Positions 3,586 through 64,000 of a stretch of DNA of 64,000 nucleotides are shown in pieces (position 1 is the stretch's first letter; the number at the start of each line of letters is the position of its first letter). The position numbers were made by a program, and so were the translations under genes. Under the pieces are notes generated by a model. The model saw only the letters and a program-made list of their open reading frames with translations. It was not told the origin of the DNA and did not search any database. Source of the stretch: Ardenticatenaceae bacterium. GTDB lineage: Bacteria; Chloroflexota; Anaerolineae; Ardenticatenales; Ardenticatenaceae. The stretch is from the NCBI GenBank assembly GCA_015491235.1, contig WFWG01000353.1, positions 1,342 to 65,341 of the forward strand. The letters run 5' to 3'.

Positions 3586-3596
3586 AAGGGCACAAA

Positions 3597-3619: not shown

Positions 3620-3640
3620 GTCGTTATTCAGGAGTTTGCC

Positions 3641-4561: not shown

Positions 4562-4605
4562 AGGGCGTGTCTTCCCGTTCCCCTGCCCGCTGCCCGCCAA
4601 CAGGC

Positions 4606-4634
4606 TTGACAGACACCCTGAAACGCGGTATGGT
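4606..4634 (+). promoter_or_regulatory. sigma-70-like promoter
   Basis: TTGACA (4606-4611), a 17-nt spacer, then TATGGT (4629-4634), about 40 nt upstream of the 4678 ATG. Confidence 0.5.
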
Positions 4635-4677
4635 GTAGGACTGCTGTGCACTTCGCCGACAGGGAAAAGGGGGAACT

Positions 4678-4992
4678 ATGGAGCAGTGTTTCATTTGTGA
4701 AGAACGACGGCCCGAACAGGTCGAATTCGCCAACGCCGAGTGCACCAACTGTGGCCGCTACGTCTGCTACGACCACGCCATCCGCGTGCAGCGAGGAAGT
4801 TTCCTTTGTTTAGTCTGCTACGAGGCGAACGAGGCCTTTTACCGCCAGCACCGGCGGCTCATTCAACGCCCGCGCTACAACGTTCCCCGCTCGCCCGACG
4901 AGCATCCCAACACTCGCCGACAGCGGGCGCGCACCCCGGCCCCGGCCAGGCGCGGCCTGGTGGCCCGCCTGCGCGAGCGGCTGGGCTTGTAG
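4678..4992 (+). CDS. small B-box/zinc-ribbon-like protein with Arg-rich tail
   Basis: 104-aa ORF with CFIC...CTNC...CYDH...CLVC spacing and a basic low-complexity C-terminus. It has its own promoter and an RBS (AAGGGGGAA). Confidence 0.5.
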   Translation: MEQCFICEERRPEQVEFANAECTNCGRYVCYDHAIRVQRGSFLCLVCYEANEAFYRQHRRLIQRPRYNVPRSPDEHPNTRRQRARTPAPARRGLVARLRERLGL

Positions 4993-5042
4993 CGGATGAA
5001 GCGAAGTGTGACAGGAAAAGCGAGTGAAGTACAGGTGGAGCC

Positions 5043-6173
5043 ATGATAGGAGCGGTGCGCCTGGTGGACGCGGAGATGCTGAACGCCCTGCTCAAAGCTG
5101 GCGGTATCTTCGTGGCTGTGGCCGTGCTGGCCCGGCTGCTCCTTGTCCTAGCCGACCGATACCTTTGGGGGCTGACCCGTCGCACCCGCACCACGCTCGA
5201 CGATGTAATCTTCAACGCGGTGCGAGGTCCCCTCTTTTGGCTGGCCCTGGTTTTGGGAGCCAGGCTGGCAGTCGCCTTCTTGACCTTCCTCGCGCCCGAG
5301 TGGCAACGTTTCCTCGACGGCCTGGTGTTTATAGCCGGTGTTCTGGCAGTCTATGTTCTCATCTACCGCCTGATTCGCGACGTGCTCAACTGGTACATCC
5401 AGAACGTGGCCCCCGAAACGGAGTCACGCTTGGACGACCTCCTGGTGCCTTACCTGCGTCGCGTGCTCCTGGTGGTGTTGACCGTGTTGGCTGGCCTGAC
5501 GATTCTGGACCACTTTGGCGTCGAGGTGACCACCCTGCTGGCTACGTTGGGGGTAGGTTCCCTGGCCGTGGCTCTGGCTGCCCAGGCCACGCTGCGGGAC
5601 GCCATTAGCGGAATGATGATTCTGCTGGACAGGCCCTACCGCATCGGCGACCGCATCTTGCTGCCAGGGCAAAACATCTACGGCGACGTGATTGACATCG
5701 GACTCCGTTCCACCCGCGTCTTGACGCGCGACAACCGGGTGGTCACAATTCCCAATTCCCTCATGACCGACGGCATGATCATCAACTACGCCTACCCAGA
5801 TCATCGCCTGCGGCTCGACATTCCAGTGGGGGTGGCCTACGGCACCGACCTCGAGCACGCCCGCGCGGTGCTCCTCCGGGCGGTGCAGAGTGTGGAAGGC
5901 GTCTTGCGGGATCCGCCCCCGCGTGTGCTCGCCCGGGGGCTGGGCGACTCCTCCGTTGACTTCATCATCCGCCTGTGGATAGACTCGTTCGTTGACCGCA
6001 CGCCAGTGATTGACCGCGTTTACCGGGCTGTCTACGCGGCCCTCAACGAGGCCGGCATCGAGATTCCGTTCCCGCAGCGCACGCTGTGGCACCGGTTGGA
6101 GCCGGACCAAGTGGCCCACTGGCAACGGGCCATCGTCCGACAAGCGCTTGAGGAGGACAAGTCAGAACCATGA
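5043..6173 (+). CDS. MscS-family mechanosensitive channel
   Basis: N-terminal TM helices followed by LLDRPYRIGDRILL...GDVIDIGLRSTRVLTRDNRVVTIPNS, the MscS beta-domain signature. Confidence 0.85.
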   Translation: MIGAVRLVDAEMLNALLKAGGIFVAVAVLARLLLVLADRYLWGLTRRTRTTLDDVIFNAVRGPLFWLALVLGARLAVAFLTFLAPEWQRFLDGLVFIAGVLAVYVLIYRLIRDVLNWYIQNVAPETESRLDDLLVPYLRRVLLVVLTVLAGLTILDHFGVEVTTLLATLGVGSLAVALAAQATLRDAISGMMILLDRPYRIGDRILLPGQNIYGDVIDIGLRSTRVLTRDNRVVTIPNSLMTDGMIINYAYPDHRLRLDIPVGVAYGTDLEHARAVLLRAVQSVEGVLRDPPPRVLARGLGDSSVDFIIRLWIDSFVDRTPVIDRVYRAVYAALNEAGIEIPFPQRTLWHRLEPDQVAHWQRAIVRQALEEDKSEP

Positions 6174-7714
6174 GCACACCTCACCAGTTTGTGGGTTTCT
6201 CCCTGGCCGACCTGTTGGCGGCCGTGCCCGCCTACCACACGATGGCCGAGTTCCTCGGCGAAATTCGCGTGACCGCTATCACCAGCGACTCCCGCCGCGT
6301 GAAGCCCGGCGCCCTCTTCGTGGCCTACCCCGGCGTGTGGGTGGACGGCCACCGCTACATCCCTGATGCCGTGGCACGCGGGGCCGTGGCCGTTCTGGGC
6401 GAGCGGCCGCCAGAGGAATACGCCGACTTGCCTGTGCCCTACGTCCAGGTGCCCGACGGGCGCGAGGCACTGGCGTGGCTGGCGGCTGCCTGGTACGGGC
6501 ACCCGTCGCGCGAGTTGCGCGTGGTGGGCGTCACCGGCACCGACGGCAAGACCACGACCACCGCGCTCATCGCTGCCGTTTTGGAGGCCACAGGTGCCCC
6601 CGTAGGCGTCATCAGCACCATTGGCGCCCGCATCGGCAACGAATGGCTGGAAACAGGCGCTCACGTTACCACCCCCGACGCCCTGGACACCCAGCATTAC
6701 CTGCGCCGCATGGCCGATGCCGGTATGCGTTACGCCGTGCTGGAGACCACTTCCCACGGCCTGGCTCAACACCGGGTCACCAGCGTGGCCTTCGACGTGG
6801 CCGTGGTCACCAACATCACCCACGAGCACTTGGACCTGCACGGCTCAGTGGAGAACTACCGCAAGGCCAAAGCCAAACTCTTCGACTCCCTTGCTTCGGC
6901 GTACCGCAAGCCGGAGACCCCCAAGGTCTCCATCCTGAACCGAGACGACTCCAGCTACGACTACCTGCACCGCTACCCGGCCGACGTGGTACTCACCTAC
7001 GGCGTGGAGCACCAGGCCGACGTGCGAGGGACGAACGTCGAGTACACCAACCAGGGCACGCGGTTTACGGTCGAAAGCCCCCTTGGCCGCTTCGAGGTTT
7101 TCACCCACCTTCTGGGAGCCTTCAACGTCCACAATGTGCTGGCTGCTGTGGCCGTGGGCGTCTCCCAAGGCGTTTCAGTCGAGCACATTCAGGAGGGGAT
7201 CGCCCGCGTGAAGCGAGTCACAGGCCGCATGGAGCCCATTGACGAGGGACAAGATTTTCTCGCCATTGTGGACTTTGCCCACACCCCCGCCTCGCTGGAG
7301 CAGGCTCTGAAAGCTGCCCGCACCATGACCAAAGGGCGCGTCATCGTGGTCTTCGGCTCGGCGGGGCTGCGCGACGTGGCCAAGCGCAGCATGATGGGCC
7401 GCGTGGCCGCGCGCCTGGCCGACCTGGCCGTCTTCACCGCCGAGGACCCGCGCACGGAGGACGTCAACGAAATTATCGCCGAGATTGCGCGGGGCGCCCA
7501 GGCAGCCGGCGCCGTAGAAGGGCAAGACTACGTGTGCATTCCCGACCGGGCCGAGGCCATCGAGTGGGCCGTCCTCCAGGCACAACCGGGCGACGTGGTG
7601 ATGGCCTGCGGCAAGGGGCACGAGCCCACCATGTGCTACGGCGAGGAGGAGTTCCCCTGGAGCGAGCACGAAGTGATGCGAGCAGCCATCCGCAAGCGGA
7701 TGCAGCGGGCGTAG
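6170..7714 (+). CDS. murE: UDP-N-acetylmuramoyl-L-alanyl-D-glutamate--2,6-diaminopimelate ligase
   Basis: 514 aa. Contains the Mur ligase P-loop GVTGTDGKTTTT and the DFAHTP and GKGHE motifs. There is an ATGA overlap with the preceding gene. Confidence 0.9.
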   Translation: MSTPHQFVGFSLADLLAAVPAYHTMAEFLGEIRVTAITSDSRRVKPGALFVAYPGVWVDGHRYIPDAVARGAVAVLGERPPEEYADLPVPYVQVPDGREALAWLAAAWYGHPSRELRVVGVTGTDGKTTTTALIAAVLEATGAPVGVISTIGARIGNEWLETGAHVTTPDALDTQHYLRRMADAGMRYAVLETTSHGLAQHRVTSVAFDVAVVTNITHEHLDLHGSVENYRKAKAKLFDSLASAYRKPETPKVSILNRDDSSYDYLHRYPADVVLTYGVEHQADVRGTNVEYTNQGTRFTVESPLGRFEVFTHLLGAFNVHNVLAAVAVGVSQGVSVEHIQEGIARVKRVTGRMEPIDEGQDFLAIVDFAHTPASLEQALKAARTMTKGRVIVVFGSAGLRDVAKRSMMGRVAARLADLAVFTAEDPRTEDVNEIIAEIARGAQAAGAVEGQDYVCIPDRAEAIEWAVLQAQPGDVVMACGKGHEPTMCYGEEEFPWSEHEVMRAAIRKRMQRA

Positions 7715-7715
7715 C

Positions 7716-8288
7716 ATGATTGCCAGCCTGGAAGGGACGGTGCAGGTCAAGCGGGACAACTGGTTGATCGTAAACGTGGGGGGAGTGGGCTATCGCGTTT
7801 ACGTTTCTCCTGCCGTGGCTGCCGAGGTTGGCGCAGAAGGGGATGTGATCCAGCTCTATACCCACCTGCACGTGCGCGAGAACGAGATGAGCCTTTACGG
7901 CTTTCGCACGCTGGAGGAACTGGAGCTCTTCGAGTTGCTCCTGAGCGTCAACGGTGTTGGCCCCCGGGTTGCACTTGCTTTTCTGGCAACCTACGACCCT
8001 GGCACGATTGTGAACGCCATTCTCAACGACCAGGCAGAACTGCTCACGCGCGTGCCCGGCGTGGGAAGGCGCACCGCCCAGCGCGTGGTGCTGGACTTGA
8101 AGAACAAAGTGCGTGCGCTGAGCGTGGCCGGGGTGCCGGCTTCCAGTTCGACGGATGCTGACGCCATTAGCGCGCTCACGGCGCTGGGATATAGTGTTCG
8201 GGAGGCCCAGGCCGCCCTGCAGGGGCTGCCGCCCGACCTTTCGCTGGAGGAGAAAATCTTTCGCGCGCTCCAGCGCCTGAGCGAGTAG
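7716..8288 (+). CDS. ruvA: Holliday junction branch migration complex subunit RuvA
   Basis: MIASLEGTV...VGGVGYRV...LYGF...FELLLSVNGVGPRVALA, the canonical RuvA layout. 190 aa. Confidence 0.9.
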   Translation: MIASLEGTVQVKRDNWLIVNVGGVGYRVYVSPAVAAEVGAEGDVIQLYTHLHVRENEMSLYGFRTLEELELFELLLSVNGVGPRVALAFLATYDPGTIVNAILNDQAELLTRVPGVGRRTAQRVVLDLKNKVRALSVAGVPASSSTDADAISALTALGYSVREAQAALQGLPPDLSLEEKIFRALQRLSE

Positions 8289-11918: not shown

Positions 11919-13781
11919 ATGCGCCACCCGTTTCTGACGCGCATTTCGCAGGGGCCATTGCTGGCCGACGGGGCAATGGGTACCATGCTCTACGCGCGGG
12001 GCATCTCGTTCAAGGAGTGCTTCGACGCCGCGAACTTGGATCGCCCCGACCTGGTGCGCGACATCCACGAGGCGTACCTGCTGGCCGGGGCGGAGGTGAT
12101 CGAGACCAACACCTTCGGGGCCAACCGGTTCAGGCTGGAGAAACATGGCCTGGCCGACAGAGTGGCCGAGATCAACCGGGCTGGCGTGGAGATTGCCAGA
12201 CAGGCCCGCCGAAACGTGCGCCAGCCGGCCTTCATTGCTGGTTCGGTCGGGCCGCTGGGGCGAAACCTGGCTCCCTTGGGCCGCCTGCGCCCGGAAGAGG
12301 CGCGCGAGGCGTTCGCCGAGCAAATCGCTGCCTTGGTGGAAGCTGGTGTTGACCTTCTTATCCTGGAAACCTTCAGCAACCTGGCCGAGTTGCTGGAGGC
12401 CGTGCGGGCCGCGCGCGAGGTGGCGCCGGGCGTGCCAGTCGTTGCCGAGATGACGTTCGGGCAGGAGGGCCTCACCAACCTGGGCTACGCGCCACAGGAG
12501 GTGGCTCAGGCACTCCGCCAGGCCGGGGCCGACCTAGTGGGAGCCAACTGCGGCATCGGGCCGCGCAATACCCTGGCTGCCGCGCGCGAAATGCTGGCAC
12601 TGGCGGATTCGCCTCCCGTTTCGGCTATGCCCAACGCCGGATGGCCGGAGCACGTCGGAGGACGTCTCCTGTATCCCGCCACGCCAGATTATTTTGCCGA
12701 CTTTGCCCGCGAGGCCGCCGAAGCCGGTGTGCGCCTCATTGGGGGGTGCTGTGGCACCACGCCGGATCATGTTCGGGCCATGCGCGCTGCACTGGACTCG
12801 TGGCAGGCCGGAGTCCTGGAACCGCAGGCTGTTCCTGCCCGCTCTCCCGTTCCCGCCATGTCATCCGCCGTGCCCGGGCCAACGCGCCTGGCCCGCGCTC
12901 TGGCTGCAGGCGAGTTCGTTATCACCGTGGAAATGGATCCGCCCAAGGGATGCGACCTGACCGACGTGTTGACGGCCGCCGCCACACTGAAGGGCGCGGG
13001 CGCCACGGTCCTCAACGTGGCCGACAGTCCACTGGCACGCATGCGCATGAGCCCTTGGGCCGTCGCCCACCTCATTCAGAGCCGCGTGGGTATCGAGACG
13101 GTACTTCACTTTCCCACGCGGGGGCGTAACCTCTTGCGCGTTCAGGGCGACCTGCTGGCCGCCCACGCGCTGGGCGTGCGTAACATCTTTGTGGTGATGG
13201 GCGACCCCACGGCCATTGGTGACTACCCAAACGCCACCGACAGCTATGACATCGTGCCCACTGGCCTCATGCGCTTGATCAAGGAAGGCTTCAATCGAGG
13301 ACGCGACCACGCTGGAAACTCCATCGGCTCTTCGACGAATTTCCTGGTGGGATGTGCGCTGAACATGAACGCAGCCAACCTTTCCCGCGAGATCAAGCTG
13401 CTGCGCAAGAAGATTGCCAGCGGAGCCGATTTCGCCTTGACGATGCCCGTCTACGACCCGGGCGTTGTTCACCGCTTCTTGGACGCATACGGTGGGCCGG
13501 TAGAGATTCCCGTGCTGGTCGGCATCCTGCCCCTCTACAACGATCGTCACGCCCGCTTCCTGCACAACGAGGTGCCGGGCATTGAGATTCCGCCATCCGT
13601 CATGGAACGCATGGAACGCGCTGAAGACAAACCGGCTGAAGGCGTACGAATCGCCCAAGAGCTGATTTCGACAATCCAGGACCTGGTTCAAGGGATTTAC
13701 ATCATGCCTCCGTTTCACAAGTACGATCTCGCCGCTCAAATCATTCGCGCCGTGCGAGCGCCTTCTGTTTCGGTTTACTGA
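11919..13781 (+). CDS. bifunctional homocysteine S-methyltransferase / 5,10-methylenetetrahydrofolate reductase (YitJ-type fusion)
   Basis: The N-terminal half has LLADGAMGT...ETNTFGAN...GGCCGTTPDH (Hcy-binding, Zn-Cys motif). The C-terminal half is MetF-like (ITVEMDPPKG...HFPTRGRN...LTMPVYD). 620 aa. Confidence 0.9.
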   Translation: MRHPFLTRISQGPLLADGAMGTMLYARGISFKECFDAANLDRPDLVRDIHEAYLLAGAEVIETNTFGANRFRLEKHGLADRVAEINRAGVEIARQARRNVRQPAFIAGSVGPLGRNLAPLGRLRPEEAREAFAEQIAALVEAGVDLLILETFSNLAELLEAVRAAREVAPGVPVVAEMTFGQEGLTNLGYAPQEVAQALRQAGADLVGANCGIGPRNTLAAAREMLALADSPPVSAMPNAGWPEHVGGRLLYPATPDYFADFAREAAEAGVRLIGGCCGTTPDHVRAMRAALDSWQAGVLEPQAVPARSPVPAMSSAVPGPTRLARALAAGEFVITVEMDPPKGCDLTDVLTAAATLKGAGATVLNVADSPLARMRMSPWAVAHLIQSRVGIETVLHFPTRGRNLLRVQGDLLAAHALGVRNIFVVMGDPTAIGDYPNATDSYDIVPTGLMRLIKEGFNRGRDHAGNSIGSSTNFLVGCALNMNAANLSREIKLLRKKIASGADFALTMPVYDPGVVHRFLDAYGGPVEIPVLVGILPLYNDRHARFLHNEVPGIEIPPSVMERMERAEDKPAEGVRIAQELISTIQDLVQGIYIMPPFHKYDLAAQIIRAVRAPSVSVY

Positions 13782-54406: not shown

Positions 54407-57130
54407 ATGGTGGGAGCGAGCGAAGCGGTCGAACGGCTAGCCCGCTTGCAATCCATACTGGAAACACTGGTGGAGTTTGAGGAGGCGTTCCAGTTCGACG
54501 AGGCCTGGGAGCGCATCATCCGCGACGCCGTCCACCTGATGCGGGCCACACGGGGCACCCTCTTCCTGGTAGACCGCGACCGCAACCGGCTCATTCCGCG
54601 CGTCTGGTACGGGCAGCCCTGGCACGGCCAAGGGCGTCCCCGCGGGTACGCGCGGGGTGAGGGCATTGCCGGGCGCGTGTGGATGACCGGCGAGCCGATC
54701 AACTCTCCCGACGTGCGGGCTGACCCACGTTTTCGGCGCTCCAACGATCCTCGCTGGAATGAAATCCGCTCACTCCTCTGCGTGCCCATCCGCGTTCGGG
54801 AGCGGGTGATCGGCGTCATTGCGGTGGACAGCACGCGCGAGAACGCCTTTCAGGAGGAGGACGAACGGCTCCTCACCACACTGGCCCGCCACGTGGCCAA
54901 TGCCTTCGAGCGGGCCAAGCTCTACCAGGGACTCAGCGACCTGCGGGCTATCGGTGAACGGCTGAACAAGATGGGGCCACGGGCCGAGTACCGGCAGACA
55001 CTCCAAAGCATCGTCGAAAAGGCCGTTCGAGTGGTGGCGGCTGGCGCCTCCAGTGCAGGTGAAGCGGCTGCGGTCATCTACGGCTACGACCCGGAGCGTG
55101 GCACCTTCGACCGCGCCTCCCGGGTGGCAGCCGGTTGGCACGAAGATGTTCACATTGACGATTACCCACGCCCGGGCGGGTTGGGGGAGCGGGCCGTACA
55201 ACAGCGCCGTCGCGTCCTTTCCTACGAGGAGACCGACGTGGAATTGCACCCCGCCCAGCAAGCCCAGGGGGCGGCGGCTGTGGCGGTCTACCCGCTCATC
55301 GCCGCCGACGAGGTGTTGGGCGTGCTCTACATCACGCTGCGCGACGAACGCCGCTTCAGCCGCCAGGAACTCATGTTGCTGGACAACTTCGTCAACCAGG
55401 CGGCCTTGGCTCTCTACCACACGCGGCAGATTCAGGATGCGTACCGCGTGCTGGCCCGCAAAGTTTACGAGCTTGAACAATTACGCCGGGCCGACGCGCT
55501 CATCAGCCAGCGCCCACGGTTGAAGGAGGCGTTGGCCGAACTCCTGCACATCGCGCTGGAGATCACTGGTGCCAAGTATGGCTCCTTCCGACTCTACAAC
55601 AGGGAAACCAACCAACTGGAGCTGGTGGCCGCCGCGGGCGTGACTCCCTCGTCGGCTGTCCAGCAACCCCTTCCCCTGGACGAAAGCAGCGTCATGGGGC
55701 AGGCCGTGTTGCAACGCCGCCCTATTCGGATTGACGACGTGCAGGCGTCACCGTGGGCCGGCGTGTACCGCCCCCTACTCACTGACCCGCCCATGCAGTC
55801 TGAGTTGGTTGTGCCCCTCTTCAGCGCTGGCGGAGGACTGGAAGGGGTGTTGAACATCGAAAGTCCGGAACCGGCCGCCTTCAGCGAGGAGGACGAACGG
55901 CTGGTAGTGGCCTTGGCCACACAGGCAGTCATCGCCATTCAGGAGATCAAGCTGCTGGATACCATGGCCGAGCTGACTGAGGCCACTTTGACCCACAGCC
56001 GTGAGGAGTTGTTCGAGTTGATCATAAGGCGGGCATGTGAGCTTATCAACGCGCCTTTGGGGGCCATCTGGCGGCTGATTGAAGAGAACAGGCAACCTGT
56101 GCTTGTCCTCCAAGCTGCCAGCGGGGGCCACCGGCGCGGCGATCGTTTGCCTTTGGAAAGCAGCCTCACCGGGCAAGCGGTGCTTACCCGCGCCCCGGTA
56201 ACCGCTGACGACGTACAAAACGAACCGGCCTTCTATTATGTGGACTTGGCGCGCCAACAAGGATGGCGGTCCGCGCTCATCGTGCCACTGCTGGCGCGGG
56301 ACGGGGAGCCGGTGGGCGCCTTTAGCCTCTACACTACCGAGCCGCGCACCTTCAGCGATTGGGACAAGCGCCTGCTGAGTGTGCTGGCCAACCACGCGGC
56401 CATCGCTATCCGTGATGCGGAAATTCTGGAATCGCTGCGGGAGGCCCGCGAGCGGCAGGCCGTGGCCGAGGCTTTTGCCGCCGTGGGAGACATCGCCGCC
56501 AACCTGCTCCACCGACTCAACAACCAGATCGGCACCATTCCGGTGCGCGTCCAAGGCATCGAGGCCAAGTGCGCAGCCGAACTTCAGAACGAGTACCTGG
56601 CTAAGAACCTGGCTGCCATTGCCGAGAGTGCCCGCCAGGCCATGCAAACCGTACGCGAAACACTGCGCCACCTTCGGCCTGTTGAAACGACATCTGTTCG
56701 CGTGGGCGAAGCCATTTTGGACGCGCTGCGGGAGATCCACATTCCCCCCGAGATCATCCTCCGAGTCGAGCAGGTGGACACACTGCCGCCAGTGCGGGCC
56801 AGCCAATCGCAGCTTTCTCTGGTTTTCGTCAACCTGTTGGAGAATGCCATCGAGGCAATGGGAGGAGAGGGAAGCATTGTCATTCGCGGCCGACCTGACG
56901 GCGATCACGTCCTGATCGAGGTCAAGGACACAGGCCCTGGCATACCACCTGAGTGGCAAACGCGCGTTTTCGACCTTCATTTTTCCGGGACGAACGAGGA
57001 CCGCAAGCTGGGCTTCGGCTTGTGGTGGGTACGGACACTGTTACACCGCTTCGGCGGAAACATTTCACTGGAGAGCCGGGTGGGTGAAGGAACCTGCTTC
57101 CTGATCCGGCTCCCAATATGGGAGGAATGA
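54407..57130 (+). CDS. multi-GAF sensor histidine kinase
   Basis: 907 aa. About four GAF-like modules, each ending in ...SELVVPL / SALIVPL-type strands. These are followed by a dimerisation/His region (ANLLHRLNNQIG) and HATPase_c (NLLENAIEAM...DTGPGIP...GFGLW). Confidence 0.85.
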   Translation: MVGASEAVERLARLQSILETLVEFEEAFQFDEAWERIIRDAVHLMRATRGTLFLVDRDRNRLIPRVWYGQPWHGQGRPRGYARGEGIAGRVWMTGEPINSPDVRADPRFRRSNDPRWNEIRSLLCVPIRVRERVIGVIAVDSTRENAFQEEDERLLTTLARHVANAFERAKLYQGLSDLRAIGERLNKMGPRAEYRQTLQSIVEKAVRVVAAGASSAGEAAAVIYGYDPERGTFDRASRVAAGWHEDVHIDDYPRPGGLGERAVQQRRRVLSYEETDVELHPAQQAQGAAAVAVYPLIAADEVLGVLYITLRDERRFSRQELMLLDNFVNQAALALYHTRQIQDAYRVLARKVYELEQLRRADALISQRPRLKEALAELLHIALEITGAKYGSFRLYNRETNQLELVAAAGVTPSSAVQQPLPLDESSVMGQAVLQRRPIRIDDVQASPWAGVYRPLLTDPPMQSELVVPLFSAGGGLEGVLNIESPEPAAFSEEDERLVVALATQAVIAIQEIKLLDTMAELTEATLTHSREELFELIIRRACELINAPLGAIWRLIEENRQPVLVLQAASGGHRRGDRLPLESSLTGQAVLTRAPVTADDVQNEPAFYYVDLARQQGWRSALIVPLLARDGEPVGAFSLYTTEPRTFSDWDKRLLSVLANHAAIAIRDAEILESLREARERQAVAEAFAAVGDIAANLLHRLNNQIGTIPVRVQGIEAKCAAELQNEYLAKNLAAIAESARQAMQTVRETLRHLRPVETTSVRVGEAILDALREIHIPPEIILRVEQVDTLPPVRASQSQLSLVFVNLLENAIEAMGGEGSIVIRGRPDGDHVLIEVKDTGPGIPPEWQTRVFDLHFSGTNEDRKLGFGLWWVRTLLHRFGGNISLESRVGEGTCFLIRLPIWEE

Positions 57131-58209
57131 GGATGACTTGGCGAGCACTGATCGTGGAAGATGAGCCGGCCTGGCGCGAGTTGCTGGCTGAGATGTTGAC
57201 CGACCTGGGCGCTACGGTGCGCACAGCCGCTGACTACGACGCGGCCATAGCGGCGCTGGTTGATGGGCCCTATCAACTGGCCCTAATTGACCTGGCCTTG
57301 GCCGGGCCGGACCACGAGAACCGGGATGGCCTGCGCGTGCTGGCCCGGTTCCGGCAGCGCTGGCCCGAAGGGCGCGCGATTCTCATCACCGGGTACGGCA
57401 CGGTGGAACTGGCCGTTCGTGCCCTGACGGAGTACGGCGCCAGTGACTTCATTCGCAAGGAGGCATTCGACCGCGAGCGCTTTCTGGAATCCGTGCAACG
57501 AGTCACGCGCTCGTTTGTGACTGTTCCACCGTTGCCTCGAACGGCGCCCCCCCTGGTGGACTCGACGCCTCAACCGCGCCCTCAACCAGCCGGAGCAGGG
57601 CGTGTGCTGGTAGTGGAGGATAACGCGGCCTGGCAGGCCATTTATGCGGAATTGTGCGAGGATCTGGGATGTTCCATGCGAGTGGCTGTGAGTTATGGTG
57701 AAGCCCGCGGCTGGCTCCAGCGCGAGGCGTATGACCTGGTGGTCGTAGACCTTATGCTCGTCAGCAGCCGGGCGCCCCTGGAAAACCGCGACGGCTTTCA
57801 CCTGCTGCGCATTACACGGGAGAAAGGGATTCCAACGGTTGTGGTCAGCGCCCTGGCTGATCCACAGGAAATTGACCGGGCTTACGAGGAATTCGAGATT
57901 TTTGCCTTCTTCGACAAAGAAGGTTTTCGCCGGGACGCCTTTTTGCACGTGGCCCGCCAGGCGTTGGGACAGCGAGAGGAGCCCTTGCACACCTCGGTGC
58001 CGCCCGATTCCCCTTTGGCCGGCCTGACTGAGCGTCAGCTTGAAGTACTTCGCCTGCTGGCCCAGGGCAAAACAAACAAGGAGATTGCCGAGGAACTCGT
58101 CGTCACGACGAACACGGTGAAGAAGCACATCCTGGCTATCTACCAGAAGCTGGGCGTAAATAGCCGGGCGGCGGCCGCTGCTGAGGCCGCTAAGTATGGG
58201 TTGAAGTAG
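57127..58209 (+). CDS. response regulator with two receiver domains and a LuxR-type HTH
   Basis: REC1 (ALIVEDEP...LALIDLAL), REC2 (VLVVEDNA...LVVVDLML), and a C-terminal LTERQLEVLRLLAQGKTNKEIAEEL...VKKHI. Start candidates are 57118, 57127 and 57133, and 57127 overlaps the kinase stop as ATGA. Confidence 0.85.
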   Translation: MRMTWRALIVEDEPAWRELLAEMLTDLGATVRTAADYDAAIAALVDGPYQLALIDLALAGPDHENRDGLRVLARFRQRWPEGRAILITGYGTVELAVRALTEYGASDFIRKEAFDRERFLESVQRVTRSFVTVPPLPRTAPPLVDSTPQPRPQPAGAGRVLVVEDNAAWQAIYAELCEDLGCSMRVAVSYGEARGWLQREAYDLVVVDLMLVSSRAPLENRDGFHLLRITREKGIPTVVVSALADPQEIDRAYEEFEIFAFFDKEGFRRDAFLHVARQALGQREEPLHTSVPPDSPLAGLTERQLEVLRLLAQGKTNKEIAEELVVTTNTVKKHILAIYQKLGVNSRAAAAAEAAKYGLK

Positions 58210-58630
58210 CCCGTTGCCCCTCGCTTTCGTGAACTCAAGCAATGTGGACAGTCGGTCCTCGCAAGCAAGCAGCTTTTTTTCTTGAAAAATCATCCCCATA
58301 GTACTATTCCGTTTTACGTGTCCATTTTTTAAAATAGAAGTAGCCCTGGAAGGCAAATGTCCCTTTGAGGGAACAGACAATTTTCATTCCGACATCGCAA
58401 CCAAACGTCACTGACGACGGAGATAACGAGAAATGGAGACCACAACGGTGACCCGAAAACCGACACACGTTTTGCTGGAGAAAATTCTGCGGCGATCCAA
58501 GGGTGAACACCGCCCTTTTCCTCAACGAGTGAGCGAGAGAACAGAGCCTGGCAATGGACACGTACAAAACCAAGAGTGGTCTGTCCGAAAGACAGACGTG
58601 TTGCGGCCACCGGTCGGGTTTTGTTACGAG

Positions 58631-59017
58631 ATGATTTTGGACTTGTTTTTCAACGCCCGCCACTTCGTTGTGATGGACGGACAACAGGGGCCAGAACACC
58701 CCCACTCTTACCGCGTTCAGGTGCGGTGTCGAAGCCGGGCACTGCACCCTCAGAATCATGTCCTGGTAGGATACCAGGAGCTTCGAGAGCGGGTGAAACA
58801 AGTTATTAAGGCGTACAACGGCACCTTGCTGAACGAATTGCCCGTTTTCCGTCACCTTCAACCCACGACTGAAAACCTGGCTGGTGTGCTGTACCAGCAA
58901 TTGAACGTTGTCCTGAAGGACATGCCCATCGAGTTGGTCAGCGTCACCGTTTGGGAGTCGCCCACCGAGGGAATTGTATTTCGGCGAGATGATGCGCCAA
59001 GTCTCTCCTTGAGCTGA
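58631..59017 (+). CDS. divergent 6-pyruvoyl-tetrahydropterin synthase / QueD-fold protein
   Basis: MILDLFFNARHFVV...EHPHSYRVQV...LLNELPVF..LQPTTENLAGVLY follows the QueD/PTPS layout (His, HxH, PT-EN). The alternative upstream start 58433 adds 66 low-complexity residues. The region has low G+C. Confidence 0.55.
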   Translation: MILDLFFNARHFVVMDGQQGPEHPHSYRVQVRCRSRALHPQNHVLVGYQELRERVKQVIKAYNGTLLNELPVFRHLQPTTENLAGVLYQQLNVVLKDMPIELVSVTVWESPTEGIVFRRDDAPSLSLS

Positions 59018-59265
59018 CCAACACCGGCAGTGCTCGACCACACAGGTTTCTGGGCAAATCTGGGTGGTCGTTTGCGAACAAAAGAGAGGATACATTTTTC
59101 TATTGCGCACTTCGCTCGCAATTGGACGGTGGACTTTCCTTTCTGCGGTATAGGTCGCTACACGGTTTTTGTGAGAAGCCTGTGTGACCGAACAGAAGTC
59201 CGGTTGCGTAATACAACGCATGATGAATAGACACGGCCAACAAGGTGAACCACAGGTTTGTCGCC

Positions 59266-61761
59266 ATGCGGCGAGTCCTTCTCGCTTGTATAAGTCTTGT
59301 ATTGCTAGCCCTTTTGTTCTACCGGGGGATTCTCTTCGGCGTCTCCCCGGAGGATGTTCCTTGGGCTTCGGACACGCTTGGCCACGTGCTGAAAGCTGAA
59401 TATCTCCGCGACCAGGTCGAACAGGGCGTCCTCTACCCCGACTTCTTCCCTCACTGGTACATGGGCCTCCAGATGCTTCGCTACCACCCCCCACTTCCTT
59501 ATTACATGTTAGCGGGGCTTTCTTACGTGACCGGCACCATGGTTCAGGCGGCCAACTGGTTCATCGTCCTGTGCACACTGGCTGGCGCGTTGACAGTGCT
59601 CTTGTACCAGCGCTGGGTCGGGTTGTGGCCTGCGTGGATAGGCGGAATCTTCTTTTTGATGTTGCCAGACAATGTGCGCGTGGCCTTTGCCGAGGGCAAC
59701 TTGCCCCGTGTGCTCGCCACGGCGTTCCTTCCACTGGCCCTCTACTGCTTGGTGCGCATTTTGGAACCTGACGGCGGGCGCCGTCACGCGGTGGGGCTGG
59801 CTATTTGCTTCCTGCTGATTACCCTGAGCCACGCCATGATGGCGGCTATTTACGCGGTGTGCTTAGCTGTGTTGGCTCTGTTATTGGGCCTTTTCAGGGC
59901 CACGGCCGGCAGGCGCCTGCTTTTGGGCATTGGGAGCATCGGGACAGGTTTGCTCTTGGCCGGGTGGTGGCTGTTGCCCAGCCTTACGGGGGGCATCACC
60001 ACGCTTGACGCCGAGGCCTTGACGCAAGCACAAGCCGTCTTTCCCCTCCTTCATTTCTTGAATCCTTTCGTCCGGCAGGAGAACCCGGAGTACGTCTACG
60101 TTGGGGCCGTTTTGCTCCTCGTGAGTCTCCTGGGGGTATTTGTAAGGGAGGGGCGCACGAAGCACAGCACAACCTTCACCCTCGTGGGGTTGGGGGGCGT
60201 GCTGATCACAACGCCCGGGTTCAACGATCTGTTTAACGCACTTCCGCTCCACAACTTGCTGTGGCCGTTGCGCTTTTTGGGAATAGCCAGCTTCTTGCTC
60301 CTGTTGGCCGTGCTGTGGCGCCTTCAGGGGTGGTGGGCGCGCACCCCCCTGTTCACAACCGGGCTGATCGTGCTCATGGCCGTGGACATGGCCGGATCGC
60401 TCCCGCTCATTTACCTGCGCCCGTTGTCGAACGAACTCGTGCAAGTGGCCACACGCCTCGCTACCACGCCGGGATGGCGAGAGGCAACCCTCGACAAAAG
60501 TCGCTTGGGCAGCGCGGCGGCTTATGCCTTTACGAAGCTGGGGCAACGGGAGCAAATTTATGGCTGGGCCTATCAGGCCGCGGCGACGGCCCCCAGCGTG
60601 GCCGCACTCAACGAGGCGCTGGTGTACGGCGCTTACGACTACGTGCTCGACCGCTTGACCCTTTACGGCGCTGACGACGTCGTCCTGCTGAAAGGGCAGC
60701 CCTTCACCGAGCCAATGGCCGCCGCGTTGCAGGCGGATGGCTTTCGCCAGCTTCACGAAGGGGACCGCCTGTTGCTCTTTCACCGCGACGGCAGCCCGCG
60801 CGCGTACAGAGGCCCCTGGCGCGTGTTGGGCATTGGGCGAGGAGCGCGGCTGATGGCCATGTTGTTCCCCCAAATTATCGTCGGCACCTCTCCATACGTG
60901 GACGACTATACGCCAGAAATGTGGCGCCAGTACGAAGTAGTGGTGCTTTCCGGCTTCGCGTGGCACGATCGCTCAGCGGCAGAGCAAGTAGTAGTCCAGG
61001 CTGCCCAAGCCGGCGTGCGCGTGGTGGTGGACTTGACCGGTGCGCCTCAAGACCCACTGGCGCGCATTCCGCGCTTCCTGGGCGTGTGGGGAGAGCGCGT
61101 CGTGCTCGACGATCGCCCTGTCGAAGTCTATACAGGTGAAGAGCAGGTGACTTTGCGTCCTTTTGCTGCACCTTCTCGCCTGTGGTACACCCACGTGCCC
61201 CAAGGATTAGATGCCGAGATCGTCACGTTCAACTACTTGGGAGAACGCGGAACGGTCGTAGGCTCCAAGCAAGTGGGAAGCGCTCGCGTCTGGTTCGTAG
61301 GCCTTAACCTTTCCTACCACGCACTTACCACGAACGATGAGAAGGCCCTGAGGCTTCTGGCCGACGTGATGCAACTGCCCCCCCACGAGCGAGCTTCCCT
61401 TATTCCTGTTCCACTGGCCGATTACCGAACGTTGGCGACCGGCTACGAGTTCACCTACACGCTCGATGAACCAGCATGGCTGCTCGTTCCGGTGGCCTCC
61501 TTCGACGGCACCCGGCTGCTCGTGGACGGCGTGCCCGTCGAGGCGCGCTCAGTGGAGACATTGGTGTTCTTCCGGGCACCGCCTGGACGGCATCTCGTAA
61601 CCGTCCAAATCGCACCAACGCCGGTATATCGCGCTGGCCGGGCAGTCAGCGTGCTTGGCCTTGTAGTGTTGGTTATGTTGTCGTTATGGGGATGGCGGAC
61701 ACCGCGCGCTGTGAAGCTGCAACCGAGGGAGGCATGGTACCCGTGGGGCGAAGCCCCTTGA
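59266..61761 (+). CDS. large polytopic membrane protein, YfhO / PTPS-related (GT-C-like) family
   Basis: About 831 aa. The N-terminal loop reads SDTLGHVLKAEYLRDQVEQGVLYPDFFPHWYMG. There are many TM helices. The C-terminal module LVDGVPVEA...PPGRHLVTVQ plus a terminal TM is shared with 27044..28810 and 30288..32039. Confidence 0.65.
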   Translation: MRRVLLACISLVLLALLFYRGILFGVSPEDVPWASDTLGHVLKAEYLRDQVEQGVLYPDFFPHWYMGLQMLRYHPPLPYYMLAGLSYVTGTMVQAANWFIVLCTLAGALTVLLYQRWVGLWPAWIGGIFFLMLPDNVRVAFAEGNLPRVLATAFLPLALYCLVRILEPDGGRRHAVGLAICFLLITLSHAMMAAIYAVCLAVLALLLGLFRATAGRRLLLGIGSIGTGLLLAGWWLLPSLTGGITTLDAEALTQAQAVFPLLHFLNPFVRQENPEYVYVGAVLLLVSLLGVFVREGRTKHSTTFTLVGLGGVLITTPGFNDLFNALPLHNLLWPLRFLGIASFLLLLAVLWRLQGWWARTPLFTTGLIVLMAVDMAGSLPLIYLRPLSNELVQVATRLATTPGWREATLDKSRLGSAAAYAFTKLGQREQIYGWAYQAAATAPSVAALNEALVYGAYDYVLDRLTLYGADDVVLLKGQPFTEPMAAALQADGFRQLHEGDRLLLFHRDGSPRAYRGPWRVLGIGRGARLMAMLFPQIIVGTSPYVDDYTPEMWRQYEVVVLSGFAWHDRSAAEQVVVQAAQAGVRVVVDLTGAPQDPLARIPRFLGVWGERVVLDDRPVEVYTGEEQVTLRPFAAPSRLWYTHVPQGLDAEIVTFNYLGERGTVVGSKQVGSARVWFVGLNLSYHALTTNDEKALRLLADVMQLPPHERASLIPVPLADYRTLATGYEFTYTLDEPAWLLVPVASFDGTRLLVDGVPVEARSVETLVFFRAPPGRHLVTVQIAPTPVYRAGRAVSVLGLVVLVMLSLWGWRTPRAVKLQPREAWYPWGEAP

Positions 61762-61970: not shown

Positions 61971-62711
61971 ATGAGCCGGAACAGCCGCCTTCTGCTGTTC
62001 GTGTTGCTGGGCACCTTTCTGTTCTTCACGGCCATTGGTTTGGCCTACGCGGCTGGCCCCATTGTGCTGGACAGCCAGTTTGGCGATTGGGCCGGGCAGC
62101 CCAACGTGCCCGACCCCCAGGGAGACGCTATTGCTGCCGCGGACGTGCTGGCTTTCTTCTTCGGAACGAACCCGAACGAGGAAACAGCCTACTTCATGGT
62201 CCAGCGAGTAAGCTCGAAGAAGCGACTTATCCTGCTGTTGCGCATTGACACGAACAATAACGGCGTGTATGCCGAACCGCAGGATCGTCTCATCTTGGTG
62301 CAGTACAAGCCGACGGGCAACGCATCCAAGGTAGACGTGACGTTGCTGGCAGGCACAGGACAATTCATCAAAACAATCGCCAACGGCGCCGATTGGGGGG
62401 AAAGCAAACAGGAAGGCGGACAGCGCGTTGAGTGGGGCGTCACCTTTGCCGATTTGGGCATTCTGCCCGGCCAGACGATTCGGATGAGCTTGTTGGCAAC
62501 CACGAAAAGCAAAGGGTGCGACTTTGACGACGACGATTTTGAAGAGGACGATCTCGGAGAGATCCTGGACCACGATGAAAACAGAAGGTGCATTGACATG
62601 GTGAATGAAGTTCAGTGGAGCCCGGCCAACGCCTTGGGGCGCACACTCGTGTTCGCCTTAGCCGTGGCAGGGAGTTTGTTCCTCGCGTGGCAGCGGAGGA
62701 GGCTGGGGTGA
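61971..62711 (+). CDS. secreted protein with acidic stretch and C-terminal TM plus basic tail (sorting-signal-like)
   Basis: Start MSRNSRLLLFVLLGTFLFFTAIGLAYA (signal peptide). The C-terminus is DFDDDDFEEDDLGE...WSPANALGRTLVFALAVAGSLFLAWQRRRLG. Its stop overlaps the next gene (GTGA). Confidence 0.6.
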   Translation: MSRNSRLLLFVLLGTFLFFTAIGLAYAAGPIVLDSQFGDWAGQPNVPDPQGDAIAAADVLAFFFGTNPNEETAYFMVQRVSSKKRLILLLRIDTNNNGVYAEPQDRLILVQYKPTGNASKVDVTLLAGTGQFIKTIANGADWGESKQEGGQRVEWGVTFADLGILPGQTIRMSLLATTKSKGCDFDDDDFEEDDLGEILDHDENRRCIDMVNEVQWSPANALGRTLVFALAVAGSLFLAWQRRRLG

Positions 62712-63304
62712 CGTGGTGGACTCTCGGGCTGTTTTGGTTCTGGCTGTTGGGTGTTCTCTTCCTGCGCCGGTATCGCGTGTGGCTGCTCTACTACCTCTTG
62801 GGAAGCGTGGGAGCGGCCTACTGGATCATCCTGATAGCCAGGAATGTGCTGGGACTGGAGCCGCTGCTGGCTCACTCAGTGGCCCAGGCCGTTCACGTTG
62901 TAGCCGGCCTAGCAGGCATCGAGACACGTATTTTCCGCAACGCTCCCGGCATTCTCCTGGTGCTGGTCGTCGCGCAACCGGTGGGGTGGACAGTGCTTCA
63001 AATTGGCGTGGAATCGTCGGGGCTGTTGGGAATCGGCGTGTTGATCAGCCTGTTGGGGTTTTACCCGGGCTGGTCTTCACTTCGCCGGGTGGGCAGCATT
63101 TTCGTGGGGGTGTTGGCATCGTGGGCTGCCAACGTGGTGCGCTTGTTCGTCATTGTGGTGCTGCTTCACTTGTACGGCAAGGAGGCACTGGTGCTGGCGC
63201 ACACGTTCGTCGGCAAGTTGGTCTTCTTTGTGCTGACAATTGCCATTTACTGGTATCTGATCACACGGCCGTCAGCACACCGGCCACTTCCCGCCCAGGC
63301 GTGA
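62708..63304 (+). CDS. exosortase/archaeosortase-family-like membrane protein (Ser at the expected Cys position)
   Basis: GTG 62708. About 198 aa and all-TM. IGVESSGLLGIGVL (the family normally has CSG), AANVVRLFVIVV (N-x-x-R) and LAHTFVGKLVFF (H-x-x-x-G) are present. Confidence 0.6.
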   Translation: MTWWTLGLFWFWLLGVLFLRRYRVWLLYYLLGSVGAAYWIILIARNVLGLEPLLAHSVAQAVHVVAGLAGIETRIFRNAPGILLVLVVAQPVGWTVLQIGVESSGLLGIGVLISLLGFYPGWSSLRRVGSIFVGVLASWAANVVRLFVIVVLLHLYGKEALVLAHTFVGKLVFFVLTIAIYWYLITRPSAHRPLPAQA

Positions 63305-63345
63305 GACATCGTTGCAAACGGGGTTGAGTGAGGAAGCACGCGACG

Positions 63346-64000
63346 ATGAAGGTGTACCTGCTGCACTTTGTTGTTTTCTGGGGTGTGTGGCTGCTCATAC
63401 CACTCCTTGTTGACGGAATAACCGCCGTCGGTGCGATGGTGGGCGTGGTAATTGCACGCTGGCGACGTCGGCGGCGTCGGCAGCCACTCGCGTATTTCCC
63501 CTTCGTTTCTGTTGTTATACCGGTTTACAACAGCGCAGAAACGCTGGAAGCCTGTCTGCGCTCCTTGGCCAGGCAGGACTACCCTCACGAGCGCATGGAA
63601 GTCTTGCTTATCAGCAACGGCACCACCGACCATTCCTTTGAGGTCTTCTCCCGCCTGCAACCCGAGCTGCCCTTCCACGTCGGGTGGCATTCCATAATCA
63701 ACAAGGGCAAGGCGTGGGCGTTGAACGCTGGCATTCACCTGGCCAAAGGAAAGTACATTTTCAACGTGGATAGCGATGTAGTCCTTGCTCCCGATGCCGT
63801 CCGCCAGGTGGTGGAAGTGATGGAGGCGGAGCCCGATTTGGGGGCAGTGACCGGCGCCATCGAGGTTCTGCCGCCGCCCCCAAATGCCCCGTGGCACCGG
63901 CACTTGCTGGCTGCTTGCGAGTTCTTCGAGTACATTACTGCCTTTCACGTTGGCCGAGAGTACCAGGCTCTGCTTCAAAACCTCTACACACTCTCCGGTG
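63346..64000 (+). CDS. GT2 glycosyltransferase with N-terminal TM (PgaC/exosortase-associated type), 3' end beyond the window
   Basis: Open to the window edge, so absent from the track. Translation is MKVYLLHFVVFWGVWLLIPLL...FVSVVIPVYNSAETLEACLRSL...FNVDSDVVLAPDA. Confidence 0.8.
   Translation, partial: MKVYLLHFVVFWGVWLLIPLLVDGITAVGAMVGVVIARWRRRRRRQPLAYFPFVSVVIPVYNSAETLEACLRSLARQDYPHERMEVLLISNGTTDHSFEVFSRLQPELPFHVGWHSIINKGKAWALNAGIHLAKGKYIFNVDSDVVLAPDAVRQVVEVMEAEPDLGAVTGAIEVLPPPPNAPWHRHLLAACEFFEYITAFHVGREYQALLQNLYTLSG

Follow-up and report, generated by a model that had tools for sequence, protein, structure and literature searches.

Exosortases are widespread, and to our knowledge archaeosortase A is the only member of the superfamily that has been studied at the bench. 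The question raised by this locus is whether three consecutive genes at the end of a 64,000-nucleotide stretch of DNA from an Ardenticatenaceae bacterium (contig WFWG01000353.1; the whole stretch is called the window here) form a sorting system of the exosortase type, as an earlier note made from the sequence alone had proposed, and, if so, of which kind. Re-checked open reading frame calls showed the three genes to be real and placed as described, and the GTG start of the exosortase-like gene does overlap the cargo stop, the cargo TGA lying within GGGGTGACG. The glycosyltransferase gene (GT2) starts 24 bases past the exosortase stop codon and, when the contig was read beyond 64000, was found to end at 64686. 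Together with upstream genes for a PTPS-like protein and a PF10131 membrane protein they form a five-gene module, of which cargo, XrtG-like exosortase and TIGR03111 GT2 are the core (Table 1); the two upstream genes had gone unmentioned in the earlier note. We are highly confident that the locus is an XrtG-type system serving a dedicated target. The XrtG gene set is already catalogued, and what is unusual here is a conserved serine in place of the catalytic cysteine and a tail motif that lies outside the database models.

Table 1. Genes of the module and features within them (window positions)
Feature	Position	Strand	Basis or remark
PTPS/QueD-fold protein	58433..59017	+	module gene 1; PF01242 75.9 bits
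PF10131 'PTPS_related' polytopic membrane protein, 838 aa	59245..61761	+	PF10131 397 bits
Cargo protein, 246 aa	61971..62711	+	ORF
QWSPANALG, putative sorting-signal motif, residues 215-223	62613..62639	+	conservation in 28 homologues
TM helix, residues 224-240, and basic tail QRRRLG, residues 241-246 (RRR 242-244)	62640..62708	+	hydropathy
XrtG-like exosortase-family membrane protein, 198 aa	62708..63304	+	TIGR03110, TIGR04178 and PF09721 scores
E102-S103-S104 (GAA TCG TCG) of E-S-S-G; S103 codon 63014-63016	63011..63019	+	aligned with Cys of E-C-S-G
N142-x-x-R145 and H165, conserved active-site residues of the family	63131..63202	+	homologue alignment
TIGR03111 GT2, 452 aa	63328..64000, past the window to 64686	+	full-length profile score

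The NCBIfam model that scored highest for the 198-aa protein was TIGR03110 (XrtG), at 91.4 bits and thus below the cut-off of 102.75; for comparison, Firmicutes members reach 174-214 on this model and the nearest Cys-type relatives 100-113. The protein passes the exosortase/archaeosortase signature TIGR04178 (46.2 versus a cut-off of 23) and PF09721 (27.0 versus 25.7), so that it does not fall below threshold for all exosortase models, and it is the only exosortase-family protein encoded in the genome. The sortase-like motifs N-x-x-R and H-x-x-x-G that had been read in it are present as N142-V-V-R145 and H165-T-F-V-G169, and 31 homologues show no variation at N142, R145, H165 and G169, residues that nearly all of 150 representatives have too. 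An AF2 model (pLDDT 86) shows six long helices and a small beta-sheet; the exosortase profile retrieved no PDB relative by sequence, and a Foldseek search with the model returned nothing meaningful. In a tree of 130 sequences the Firmicutes XrtG clade (43 rows, all Cys) is split from the window protein with a branch support of 100, and the window protein is found in a 16-row, all-Ser clade with a support of 98, which by this reconstruction makes it part of a sister clade of the Firmicutes XrtGs and not a member from inside them. The idea in the earlier note of an XrtG system with a GT2 of its own was correct, given that XrtG is the top model, that the GT2 passes TIGR03111 and that Firmicutes loci contain the same parts; so was its suggestion of a related or new subclass, considering the score below the XrtG cut-off, the sister clade and the serine at the catalytic Cys position.

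The cargo has the build that had been described for it: a predicted Sec-type signal peptide (residues 1-27, ending AYA|AG, read off the sequence by eye), an acidic linker (residues 183-207) with one Cys on either side, the WSPANALG stretch, one TM helix and the RRRLG tail. An alternative ATG at 61908 would extend it to 267 aa. The succession of motif, TM helix and basic tail is kept in all cargo homologues, and across 28 of them the tail motif is the best-conserved segment of the protein, the mean majority fraction being 0.88 there, 0.62 in the ectodomain and 0.48 in the TM helix; W216, P218 and L222 are invariant, and S217 and G223 are conserved at ≥90%. The remark that the motif is none of the named ones holds for the curated collection, in that no NCBIfam CTERM model covers QWSPANALG: ten isolated tails searched at E≤10 gave only weak, generic matches, which were confined to TM and basic segments in various anchor models. 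The ectodomain may be a DOMON/CBM9-like beta-sandwich, a weak assignment drawn from the AF2 model (pLDDT 88), for which the best PDB fold match was dopamine beta-hydroxylase (4zel, E=1.9e-3; weak, TM 0.38).

A search for further proteins ending in the PANALG-TM-RRR pattern, suggested by the earlier note, gave none, since the adjacent cargo was the sole match of a tail HMM among all six-frame ORFs of the genome. The same held more widely, each of nine genomes (the source genome and eight others) giving a single strong tail match; a reading in which the enzyme serves many targets was therefore rejected. Because there is one tail motif per genome, the module is a dedicated one-enzyme, one-target system. 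Such one-to-one 'dedicated' systems are a recognised class, set out in Haft's preprint (bioRxiv 10.1101/2023.06.07.544157), and since the tail is moreover a strongly conserved motif and not a generic anchor, the lack of a second bearer does not, judging from sequence conservation, count against sorting. The attributes of sorting signals given in that preprint are a C-terminal position, three or more signature residues that hardly vary, a TM helix, a basic cluster and an N-terminal signal peptide, together with either several bearers in a genome or, in dedicated systems, an enzyme and a single target that are regularly adjacent (bioRxiv 10.1101/2023.06.07.544157). The cargo tail combines C-terminal motif, TM helix and basic cluster with a predicted signal peptide, and there are not several bearers per genome but enzyme and target are adjacent in 22 of 25 loci.

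The full-length GT2 passes TIGR03111, 'XrtG-associated glycosyltransferase' (374.9 versus a cut-off of 363.95), and carries DSD148, TED246 and QRVRW286 with flanking TM segments, as in synthases of the processive type. It had been described as of the PgaC/exosortase-associated kind, of which the second half stands; PgaC/IcaA (TIGR03937) was the next-best model, at 140.9 bits and far below the cut-off of 422.3, and the protein thus resembles the poly-beta-1,6-GlcNAc synthase in architecture (DSD, TED, QRVRW and flanking TM segments) without reaching a score for membership. The hydropathy profile of the PF10131 protein gives about 9-10 TM helices in the N-terminal part, then a large domain on the extracytoplasmic side and a single TM helix at the C-terminus, and the protein had no PDB match by sequence; PF10131 has been tied to the GT-C/PMT/STT3 clan by HHpred results (PMC7801869), and by analogy the protein may be considered GT-C-like. 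The PTPS-like protein passes PF01242 and scores 64.8 bits on TIGR03112, the XrtG-system PTPS-related domain, marginally below the cut-off of 69.35.

The order PTPS-PF10131-cargo-XrtG-GT2 was found again in loci from Ardenticatenia, Anaerolineae and Chloroflexia. Carriers that are in culture include Ardenticatena maritima, Anaerolinea thermolimosa IMO-1 and Oscillochloris sp. ZM17-4. Cargo, enzyme and GT2 keep their order in 22 of the 25 related loci examined, often with the cargo stop and enzyme start overlapping or nearly touching; the PF10131 gene lies immediately 5' of the cargo wherever the upstream flank was read, and 12 of the 14 long loci have the PTPS-like gene adjoining the module. 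Clustering of ORFs from 14 loci yielded no sixth conserved gene, and the flanks are unrelated. In five loci (L002, L003, L015, L029 and P0122) PF10131 protein and cargo share one open frame, an arrangement that would be as compatible with a permanent subunit of a complex as with a cargo that is cleaved. The module is self-contained and has probably moved horizontally. The lower G+C of the locus that had been noticed was borne out but is modest (58.6% for 61971-64000, compared with 62.8% in the window and 63.2% genome-wide; the 32/60 counted over 62221-62280 was exact), and it was rejected as strong evidence of foreign origin; as the difference is merely about 4 points, such an origin is better argued from the sporadic distribution of the module.

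A feature that the earlier note had missed is the residue at the position of the expected catalytic cysteine. The Firmicutes XrtGs carry DYECSG, and the window protein has Ser103 in place of the catalytic Cys. Among 150 representatives aligned with hmmalign this position is Cys in 120 and Ser in 13, with N, T, P or Q in a few relatives, and among 31 close homologues of the window enzyme it is Ser in 30. The serine is encoded by TCN in each of the 21 Ser-type loci, the four synonymous forms all being seen, and in the tree the Ser clade branches within Cys forms, where one pair of sisters (P0093 and P0095) differs as Cys and Ser. Because the residue is so constant across four TCN codons, because Asn142, Arg145 and His165 stay invariant and because the Ser clade stands among Cys forms, the alignments argue that the serine is selected and is not a product of decay. 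Ser103 is placed at a helix N-terminus in the AF2 model, which is a usual location of a nucleophile. We take Cys-Arg-His to be the classic exosortase site beyond ArtA as well. Catalytic activity of ArtA depends critically on its conserved Cys173 (PMC9263693), and for this reason the Ser form might be inactive; on balance we consider the chances even that Ser103 is a working nucleophile and that the tail is cleaved. At least four swaps between Ser and Cys appear to have taken place within the XrtG-like group, and both chemistries would therefore work in one scaffold.

Tail motif variants track enzyme sub-clades. Enzymes of the core Ser clade are accompanied by QW[ST]PA[ND]ALG tails, and the Cys-type enzymes of L002 and L003 by QYSPVPTLG or QYTAVPILG. 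A strict pairing of nucleophile and tail is weakened by two cases: the pairing is loose because the Ser-type enzyme P0095 has a cargo with the tail QWTAVGVLG, which lacks the Pro, and the Cys-type enzyme of L029 is found with QWSPAPALG, nearly identical to QWSPANALG.

From these data we infer a pathway of cleavage and transfer. The cargo would be exported via Sec and its signal peptide cut after AYA, leaving a DOMON/CBM9-like beta-sandwich outside the membrane, anchored through the C-terminal helix while RRR stays on the cytoplasmic side. The XrtG-like enzyme would then recognise QWSPANALG at the outer membrane face and remove the helix, with Ser103 replacing the family Cys as nucleophile and His165, Arg145 and Asn142 assisting, and would hand the new cargo C-terminus to an acceptor. 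The most plausible acceptor, at the level of a guess, is a glycan or glycolipid made by the processive GT2 and the GT-C-like PF10131 protein, and the outcome would be a sugar-binding protein fixed to a surface polymer of a single-membrane bacterium. A Chloroflexota branch of the XrtG/Firmicu-CTERM system with a cargo processed in this way is the best overall explanation of the locus, with a probability of roughly 0.55. The fullest version, in which a Chloroflexota exosortase branch with a natural serine nucleophile still processes a dedicated, co-evolving QWSPANALG target and the sugar-binding protein is joined to the polymer of its operon partners, is put forward tentatively and falls somewhat short of an even chance.

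The part played by the enzyme could be read in two other ways. With the loss of the Cys, the XrtG-like protein may have turned into a scaffold or chaperone that serves the GT2/PF10131 glycan machinery without catalysis, and the cargo would then retain its TM anchor. The critical role of the Cys in ArtA, the one studied family member (PMC9263693), the score below the XrtG cut-off and the occurrence of N, T, P and Q at the nucleophile position in a few relatives all lend themselves to such a pseudo-enzyme; dead enzymes, however, usually drift at all catalytic positions, whereas here Ser is kept in 30 of 31 homologues through four synonymous codons, there is no variation at Asn, Arg and His, the recognition motif is still the best-conserved part of the cargo, and Ser and Cys alternate between sister sequences as interchangeable nucleophiles would. 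We consider this alternative unlikely. Very slightly less likely again is an enzyme that acts as a protease only, cutting the tail hydrolytically and releasing the beta-sandwich protein to the medium or wall space without transfer to an acceptor. A Ser-His site is typical of hydrolases, and no acceptor for XrtG systems was found in the literature searched, but the tight linkage to two glycan-building enzymes, conserved in both phyla, suggests that their product takes part, and the substrates of archaeosortase A are lipid-attached after cleavage (PMC9263693).

The cargo could instead never be cut at all. As in the BcsA-BcsB pair, it might be a permanent subunit, a sugar-binding ectodomain with a C-terminal TM anchor that remains bound to the GT2 synthase and guides the nascent polymer, QWSPANALG then serving as a protein-protein contact at the membrane surface and not as a signal for cleavage. 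The hint of a DOMON/CBM-like fold, the strict one-to-one occurrence of cargo and processive GT2 genes and the natural fusions of cargo and PF10131 membrane protein are consistent with a BcsB-like role. It leaves unexplained, however, what a conserved exosortase-family protein, its Arg/His site preserved, is doing between cargo and GT2; furthermore, the tail shows every applicable attribute given by Haft for dedicated sorting signals, and the Firmicutes relatives are curated as sorting-domain proteins. Of the three alternatives we give this one the least credence, by a little, and we retain processing of a dedicated cargo by the XrtG-like enzyme as the preferred reading. Being small and self-contained, with a single enzyme, a single target and two glycan enzymes, the module is an attractive test system. 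The curated models TIGR03110 and TIGR04145 miss the Chloroflexota branch, and its cargos are therefore labelled 'hypothetical' in public records; each of the 40 cargo homologues was either unnamed or so labelled.

Of the known systems, the Firmicutes XrtG/Firmicu-CTERM system (TIGR03110, TIGR04145, TIGR03111, TIGR03112, PF10131) is most like the module, and the literature searched contained gene listings of XrtG systems only, with no experimental work found. Its loci contain the same five part types (cargo, XrtG, GT2, PTPS and PF10131), with a single secreted target directly 5' of an exosortase of about 200 aa, and the two enzymes have N-x-x-R and H-x-x-x-G in common. The targets share their build as well: a signal peptide, a beta-sandwich start I-x-[IL]-D-G-x-[FY]-x-[DE]-W, a motif, a TM helix and a basic tail. 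The systems differ in the nucleophile (Cys in E-C-S-G versus Ser103 in E-S-S-G), in the tail (GTPTG-TM-KKK versus QWSPANALG-TM-RRR) and in the position of PF10131, which follows the GT2 in Firmicutes and precedes the cargo in the window; Firmicutes loci also have one or two PTPS genes and a 360-aa protein, whereas the window module has neither the 360-aa protein nor a second PTPS. On TIGR04145 the cargos next to Firmicutes XrtGs, curated as sorting-domain proteins, score 99-161 bits; the window cargo has no match to this model at E≤10 (curated cut-off 50 bits), and 16 of 28 members of its family have sub-threshold matches, the best at E=2.2e-5. An hhalign comparison gave E=0.0037 with a probability of only 9%, the elements IxxDGxFxDW ... 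GxxVEW being collinear. The cargo is thus a likely but unproven remote homologue of the Firmicu-CTERM proteins.

More distant systems share fewer features. Archaeosortase A of Haloferax volcanii, which acts on PGF-CTERM signals, belongs to the same superfamily (TIGR04178), and its signal likewise combines a motif and a TM helix with basic residues. Experimental proof of cleavage and of a critical Cys and Arg exists for this superfamily member alone, and its substrates become attached to lipid after cleavage (PMC9263693). Unlike the window enzyme it has many substrates per genome, a lipid anchor and a Cys nucleophile, is much larger and is without dedicated GT2 and PF10131 partners. Exosortase A (EpsH), the PEP-CTERM enzyme, is of a homologous family, as the PF09721 match (27 bits) indicates, and is likewise associated with exopolysaccharide loci, but it is an eight-TM enzyme of diderm bacteria with many targets, and the window enzyme scores only about 20 bits on the XrtA and 8TM_EpsH models, whose cut-offs exceed 100. 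Rhombosortase, which acts on GlyGly-CTERM, is an intramembrane serine enzyme with a tripartite C-terminal signal (PMC3237569); having a rhomboid fold, it is not homologous to the window enzyme, and the likeness is limited to a serine doing the job. Elsewhere in Chloroflexota there are Cys-type cassettes that keep E-C-S-G; those of L002, L003 and L029 share the cargo family and the neighbour genes of the window, and that of L037 has an unrelated small cargo ending in YSVPTLG. A Ser clade beside close Cys-type relatives with almost the same target constitutes a natural experiment on the nucleophile.

The evidence strongly supports reading the window locus, in which genes for a PTPS-like protein, a PF10131 membrane protein, a predicted sorting target (the cargo), an XrtG-like exosortase and a GT2 glycosyltransferase follow one another, as an XrtG-type dedicated sorting module. 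The last three genes had been claimed by an earlier note, and all were found in the window, which lies on contig C353 of a 3.8-Mb genome (96.6% complete, 63.2% G+C); the note's count of 32 G+C in 60 bases was exact, and the lower G+C that it claimed for the locus came to ~4 points under the surroundings. The GTG start of the exosortase gene overlaps the cargo TGA and agrees with the N-termini of homologues. When the locus was read past 64000, as the note had proposed, GT2 was found to continue on the contig, followed by a convergent gene, SelD-like as read by eye, so that the operon ends there.

Positions of the module genes and of features in related loci
Feature	Sequence	Positions	Strand	Remarks
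PTPS-fold gene	window	58433-59017		upstream part of module; PF01242 passed
PF10131 membrane protein gene	window	59245-61761		838 aa; PF10131 397 bits
Cargo gene	window	61971-62711		246 aa; ORF
XrtG-like exosortase gene	window	62708-63304		198 aa; GTG start
GT2 gene	window	starts 63328, passes window edge		452 aa; ends at 64686 on contig
PF10131 + cargo frame	L002	2-1486		
PF10131 + cargo frame	L003	2049-3548	minus	
PF10131 + cargo frame	L015	3675-7001		
PF10131 + cargo frame	L029	2-3040		
Tandem cargo paralogues	L026	33-902 and 893-1558		TWSPADALG tails
Broken cargo tail and GT2	L016	6265-6879 and 7579-8875		frame changes
Second cassette	L037 (G012:C195)	7552-8121 / 6953-7744 / 5484-7262 / 2659-5952	minus	
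Polysaccharide deacetylase	L032 (Firmicutes)	12506-13279		PF01522

The 198-aa protein matched XrtG (TIGR03110) best among NCBIfam models, at 91.4 bits under a curated cut-off of 102.75, and passed both the exosortase/archaeosortase signature TIGR04178 (46.2 vs. a cut-off of 23) and Pfam PF09721; the note's exosortase call thus stood for the family and missed the XrtG cut-off itself. It is the only exosortase-family gene product of the host genome. Full-length GT2 passed TIGR03111, 'XrtG-associated glycosyltransferase' (374.9 vs. 363.95), with PgaC/IcaA a distant second, and carries DSD, TED and QRVRW motifs with flanking membrane segments, as in processive synthases; with TIGR03110 the exosortase's top model, the suggested pairing of XrtG with its associated GT2 was borne out. 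Both upstream genes belong to the system: the PTPS-fold protein scored 64.8 on TIGR03112, just below the cut-off of 69.35, and PF10131 has been placed by HHpred among GT-C glycosyltransferases, beside STT3 and PMT (PMC7801869). Read by eye, the PTPS-fold protein apparently keeps the His pattern ARH...HPH and seems to lack the Cys used by QueD/PTPS enzymes.

The cargo comprises a Sec-type leader ending AYA before AG, an acidic stretch between two cysteines (residues 183-207), and a tail of QWSPANALG (215-223), hydrophobic helix (224-240) and terminal QRRRLG. Public gene calls choose an ATG at 61908, 63 bases upstream (267 aa), with GGAGG just 3 bases before it, while the ATG at 61971 yields a normal short leader; homologue N-termini did not discriminate between the two. 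The top PDB match of the confident AF2 model (pLDDT 88) was dopamine beta-hydroxylase (4zel; E = 1.9e-3, TM 0.38), presumably through its DOMON domain, and in UniRef one homologue is called 'carbohydrate-binding domain-containing protein', which agrees with this match. The Firmicu-CTERM model TIGR04145, whose 191 positions span the whole beta-sandwich and not the tail alone, did not match the window cargo; 16 of 28 family members matched it weakly (best E = 2.2e-5), and profile-profile comparison gave a collinear match (E = 0.0037, probability only 9%) with IxxDGxFxDW at the start and GxxVEW/EF toward the end. Going by these matches and the fold, the cargo is probably related, though distantly, to the Firmicu-CTERM family, and its signal differs.

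Among 28 cargo homologues, W216, P218 and L222 were invariant and S217 and G223 nearly so, making the tail motif the most conserved stretch (mean majority fraction 0.88, vs. 0.62 for ectodomain, 0.48 for helix and 0.38 for leader). A tail-profile search of nine genomes returned exactly one strong match in each, always adjoining the enzyme gene, the remaining matches being weak and chiefly over the helix and basic part; a second bearer of the tail, sought in the host genome at the note's suggestion, did not emerge, only the adjacent cargo matching strongly. Haft's published attribute list accommodates 'dedicated' sorting systems, in which an enzyme gene regularly found next to its one target stands in for the multi-copy criterion, and the cargo tail shows all applicable attributes. 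No curated CTERM model covers QWSPANALG.

The enzyme has Ser103 where the family's catalytic Cys sits; in the AF2 model (pLDDT 86) a short helix lies on one side of this serine and the N-terminus of the following helix on the other. Among 31 close homologues the aligned motif was I-G-V-E-S-S-G-L-L-E, and only the relative P0093 had E-C-S-G. When a homologue profile was searched against 1.8 billion representatives and 150 sequences were aligned with hmmalign, the position held Cys in 120 and Ser in 13, was uncovered in 14, and held N, T, P and Q once each; Firmicutes XrtGs all read D/N-[YF]-E-C-S-G. The Firmicutes clade was wholly Cys in a 130-sequence tree, where the window protein fell within a well-supported all-Ser clade of 16. 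This clade is nested in a group of 22 whose single Cys member, P0093, is sister to Ser-type P0095; isolated Ser forms were also present elsewhere, and at least four Cys/Ser changes are required. Ser-type loci use TCN codons in 21 of 21 cases, one step from TGY, and all four synonymous forms are present, so selection acts on the serine itself. A literature search for a serine-type exosortase found no description. Many Cys-type relatives (P0146, P0154-P0172, P0161, P0162, P0179, P0200; up to 1162 aa) have the XrtG-like domain, N- or C-terminal, fused to long extra regions.

The correspondence between enzyme and signal follows sub-clade loosely and is no strict rule. The core Ser clade goes with QW[ST]PA[ND]ALG tails, and Cys-type enzymes go with QYSPVPTLG (L002) and QYTAVPILG (L003), the cargo family being unchanged, or with QWSPAPALG (L029); the looseness is evident from Ser-type P0095, which goes with QWTAVGVLG.

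Species-representative genomes yielded 19 Chloroflexota loci, in Ardenticatenia, Anaerolineae, Herpetosiphonaceae, Roseiflexaceae and Oscillochloris, and the five-gene order was repeated wherever the flank was long enough. When 201 genomes of the phylum were searched separately with a model, only four had strong matches (five loci), none of them among the listed genomes of the window's own class. ORF clustering of 14 long loci revealed neither a sixth conserved gene nor common flanks; the genes at 54407-58209 of the window, immediately before the module, did not recur beside it in other genomes. Given this sporadic occurrence, the unshared flanks and the lower G+C, the module looks as if it moves between genomes. 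Of the loci seen, L026 alone has two targets, tandem paralogues before one Ser-type enzyme. The frame changes in L016, from a long-read MAG, are due either to misassembly or to decay of the copy. Genome G012, which already has a Cys-type cassette with cargo of the window's family (L003/L038), has a second XrtG-like cassette, L037, consisting of an unrelated 190-aa secreted protein (tail YSVPTLG-TM-RRR), a Cys-type enzyme (IGIECSALIE), GT2 and a 1098-aa PF10131-like protein. PF10131 and cargo share one open frame in L002, L003, L015, L029 and P0122, reaching 1109 aa; these look like natural fusions of a GT-C-like protein with an exosortase target, and such fusion implies a functional tie between the two.

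By analogy with archaeosortase A, in which conserved Cys173, Arg214 and Arg253 are reported critical for activity (PMC9263693), and by the logic of tripartite signals, the cargo would be exported, the XrtG-like enzyme would recognise QWSPANALG at the membrane surface, Ser103 would attack, and the cargo would be transferred to something made by the GT2 and PF10131 enzymes. That the enzyme is instead a dead scaffold we consider unlikely; Asn142, Arg145 and His165 were invariant among the 31 close homologues. Purely hydrolytic cutting, setting the cargo protein free, appears slightly less probable still, and least probable is a cargo that stays with the synthase for good as a BcsB-like subunit, a reading that the PF10131-cargo fusions would fit.

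A paper on Lactiplantibacillus plantarum counts as the 'complete XrtG system' one Firmicu-CTERM protein together with XrtG and a pair of associated glycosyltransferases (PMC12854382). In five Clostridia loci around proteins scoring 174-214 bits on TIGR03110, the order was PTPS, Firmicu-CTERM protein (TIGR04145, 99-161 bits), XrtG, GT2, a ~360-aa protein, a second PTPS and PF10131. A polysaccharide deacetylase closes the XrtG operon of L032, which hints at an N-acetylated polymer as GT2 product. The Chloroflexota module has the same part types in a different order and lacks the deacetylase, 360-aa and second PTPS genes; Firmicutes targets end in GTPTG, helix and a Lys cluster, whereas the window cargo ends in QWSPANALG, helix and QRRRLG. 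The XrtG system as a kind is already catalogued, and JGI and NCBI label many Chloroflexota enzymes of this group XrtG; new are the clade-wide conserved serine at the nucleophile position, a signal motif without a curated model, the placing of a 'hypothetical' cargo family as target, and the rearranged five-gene module.
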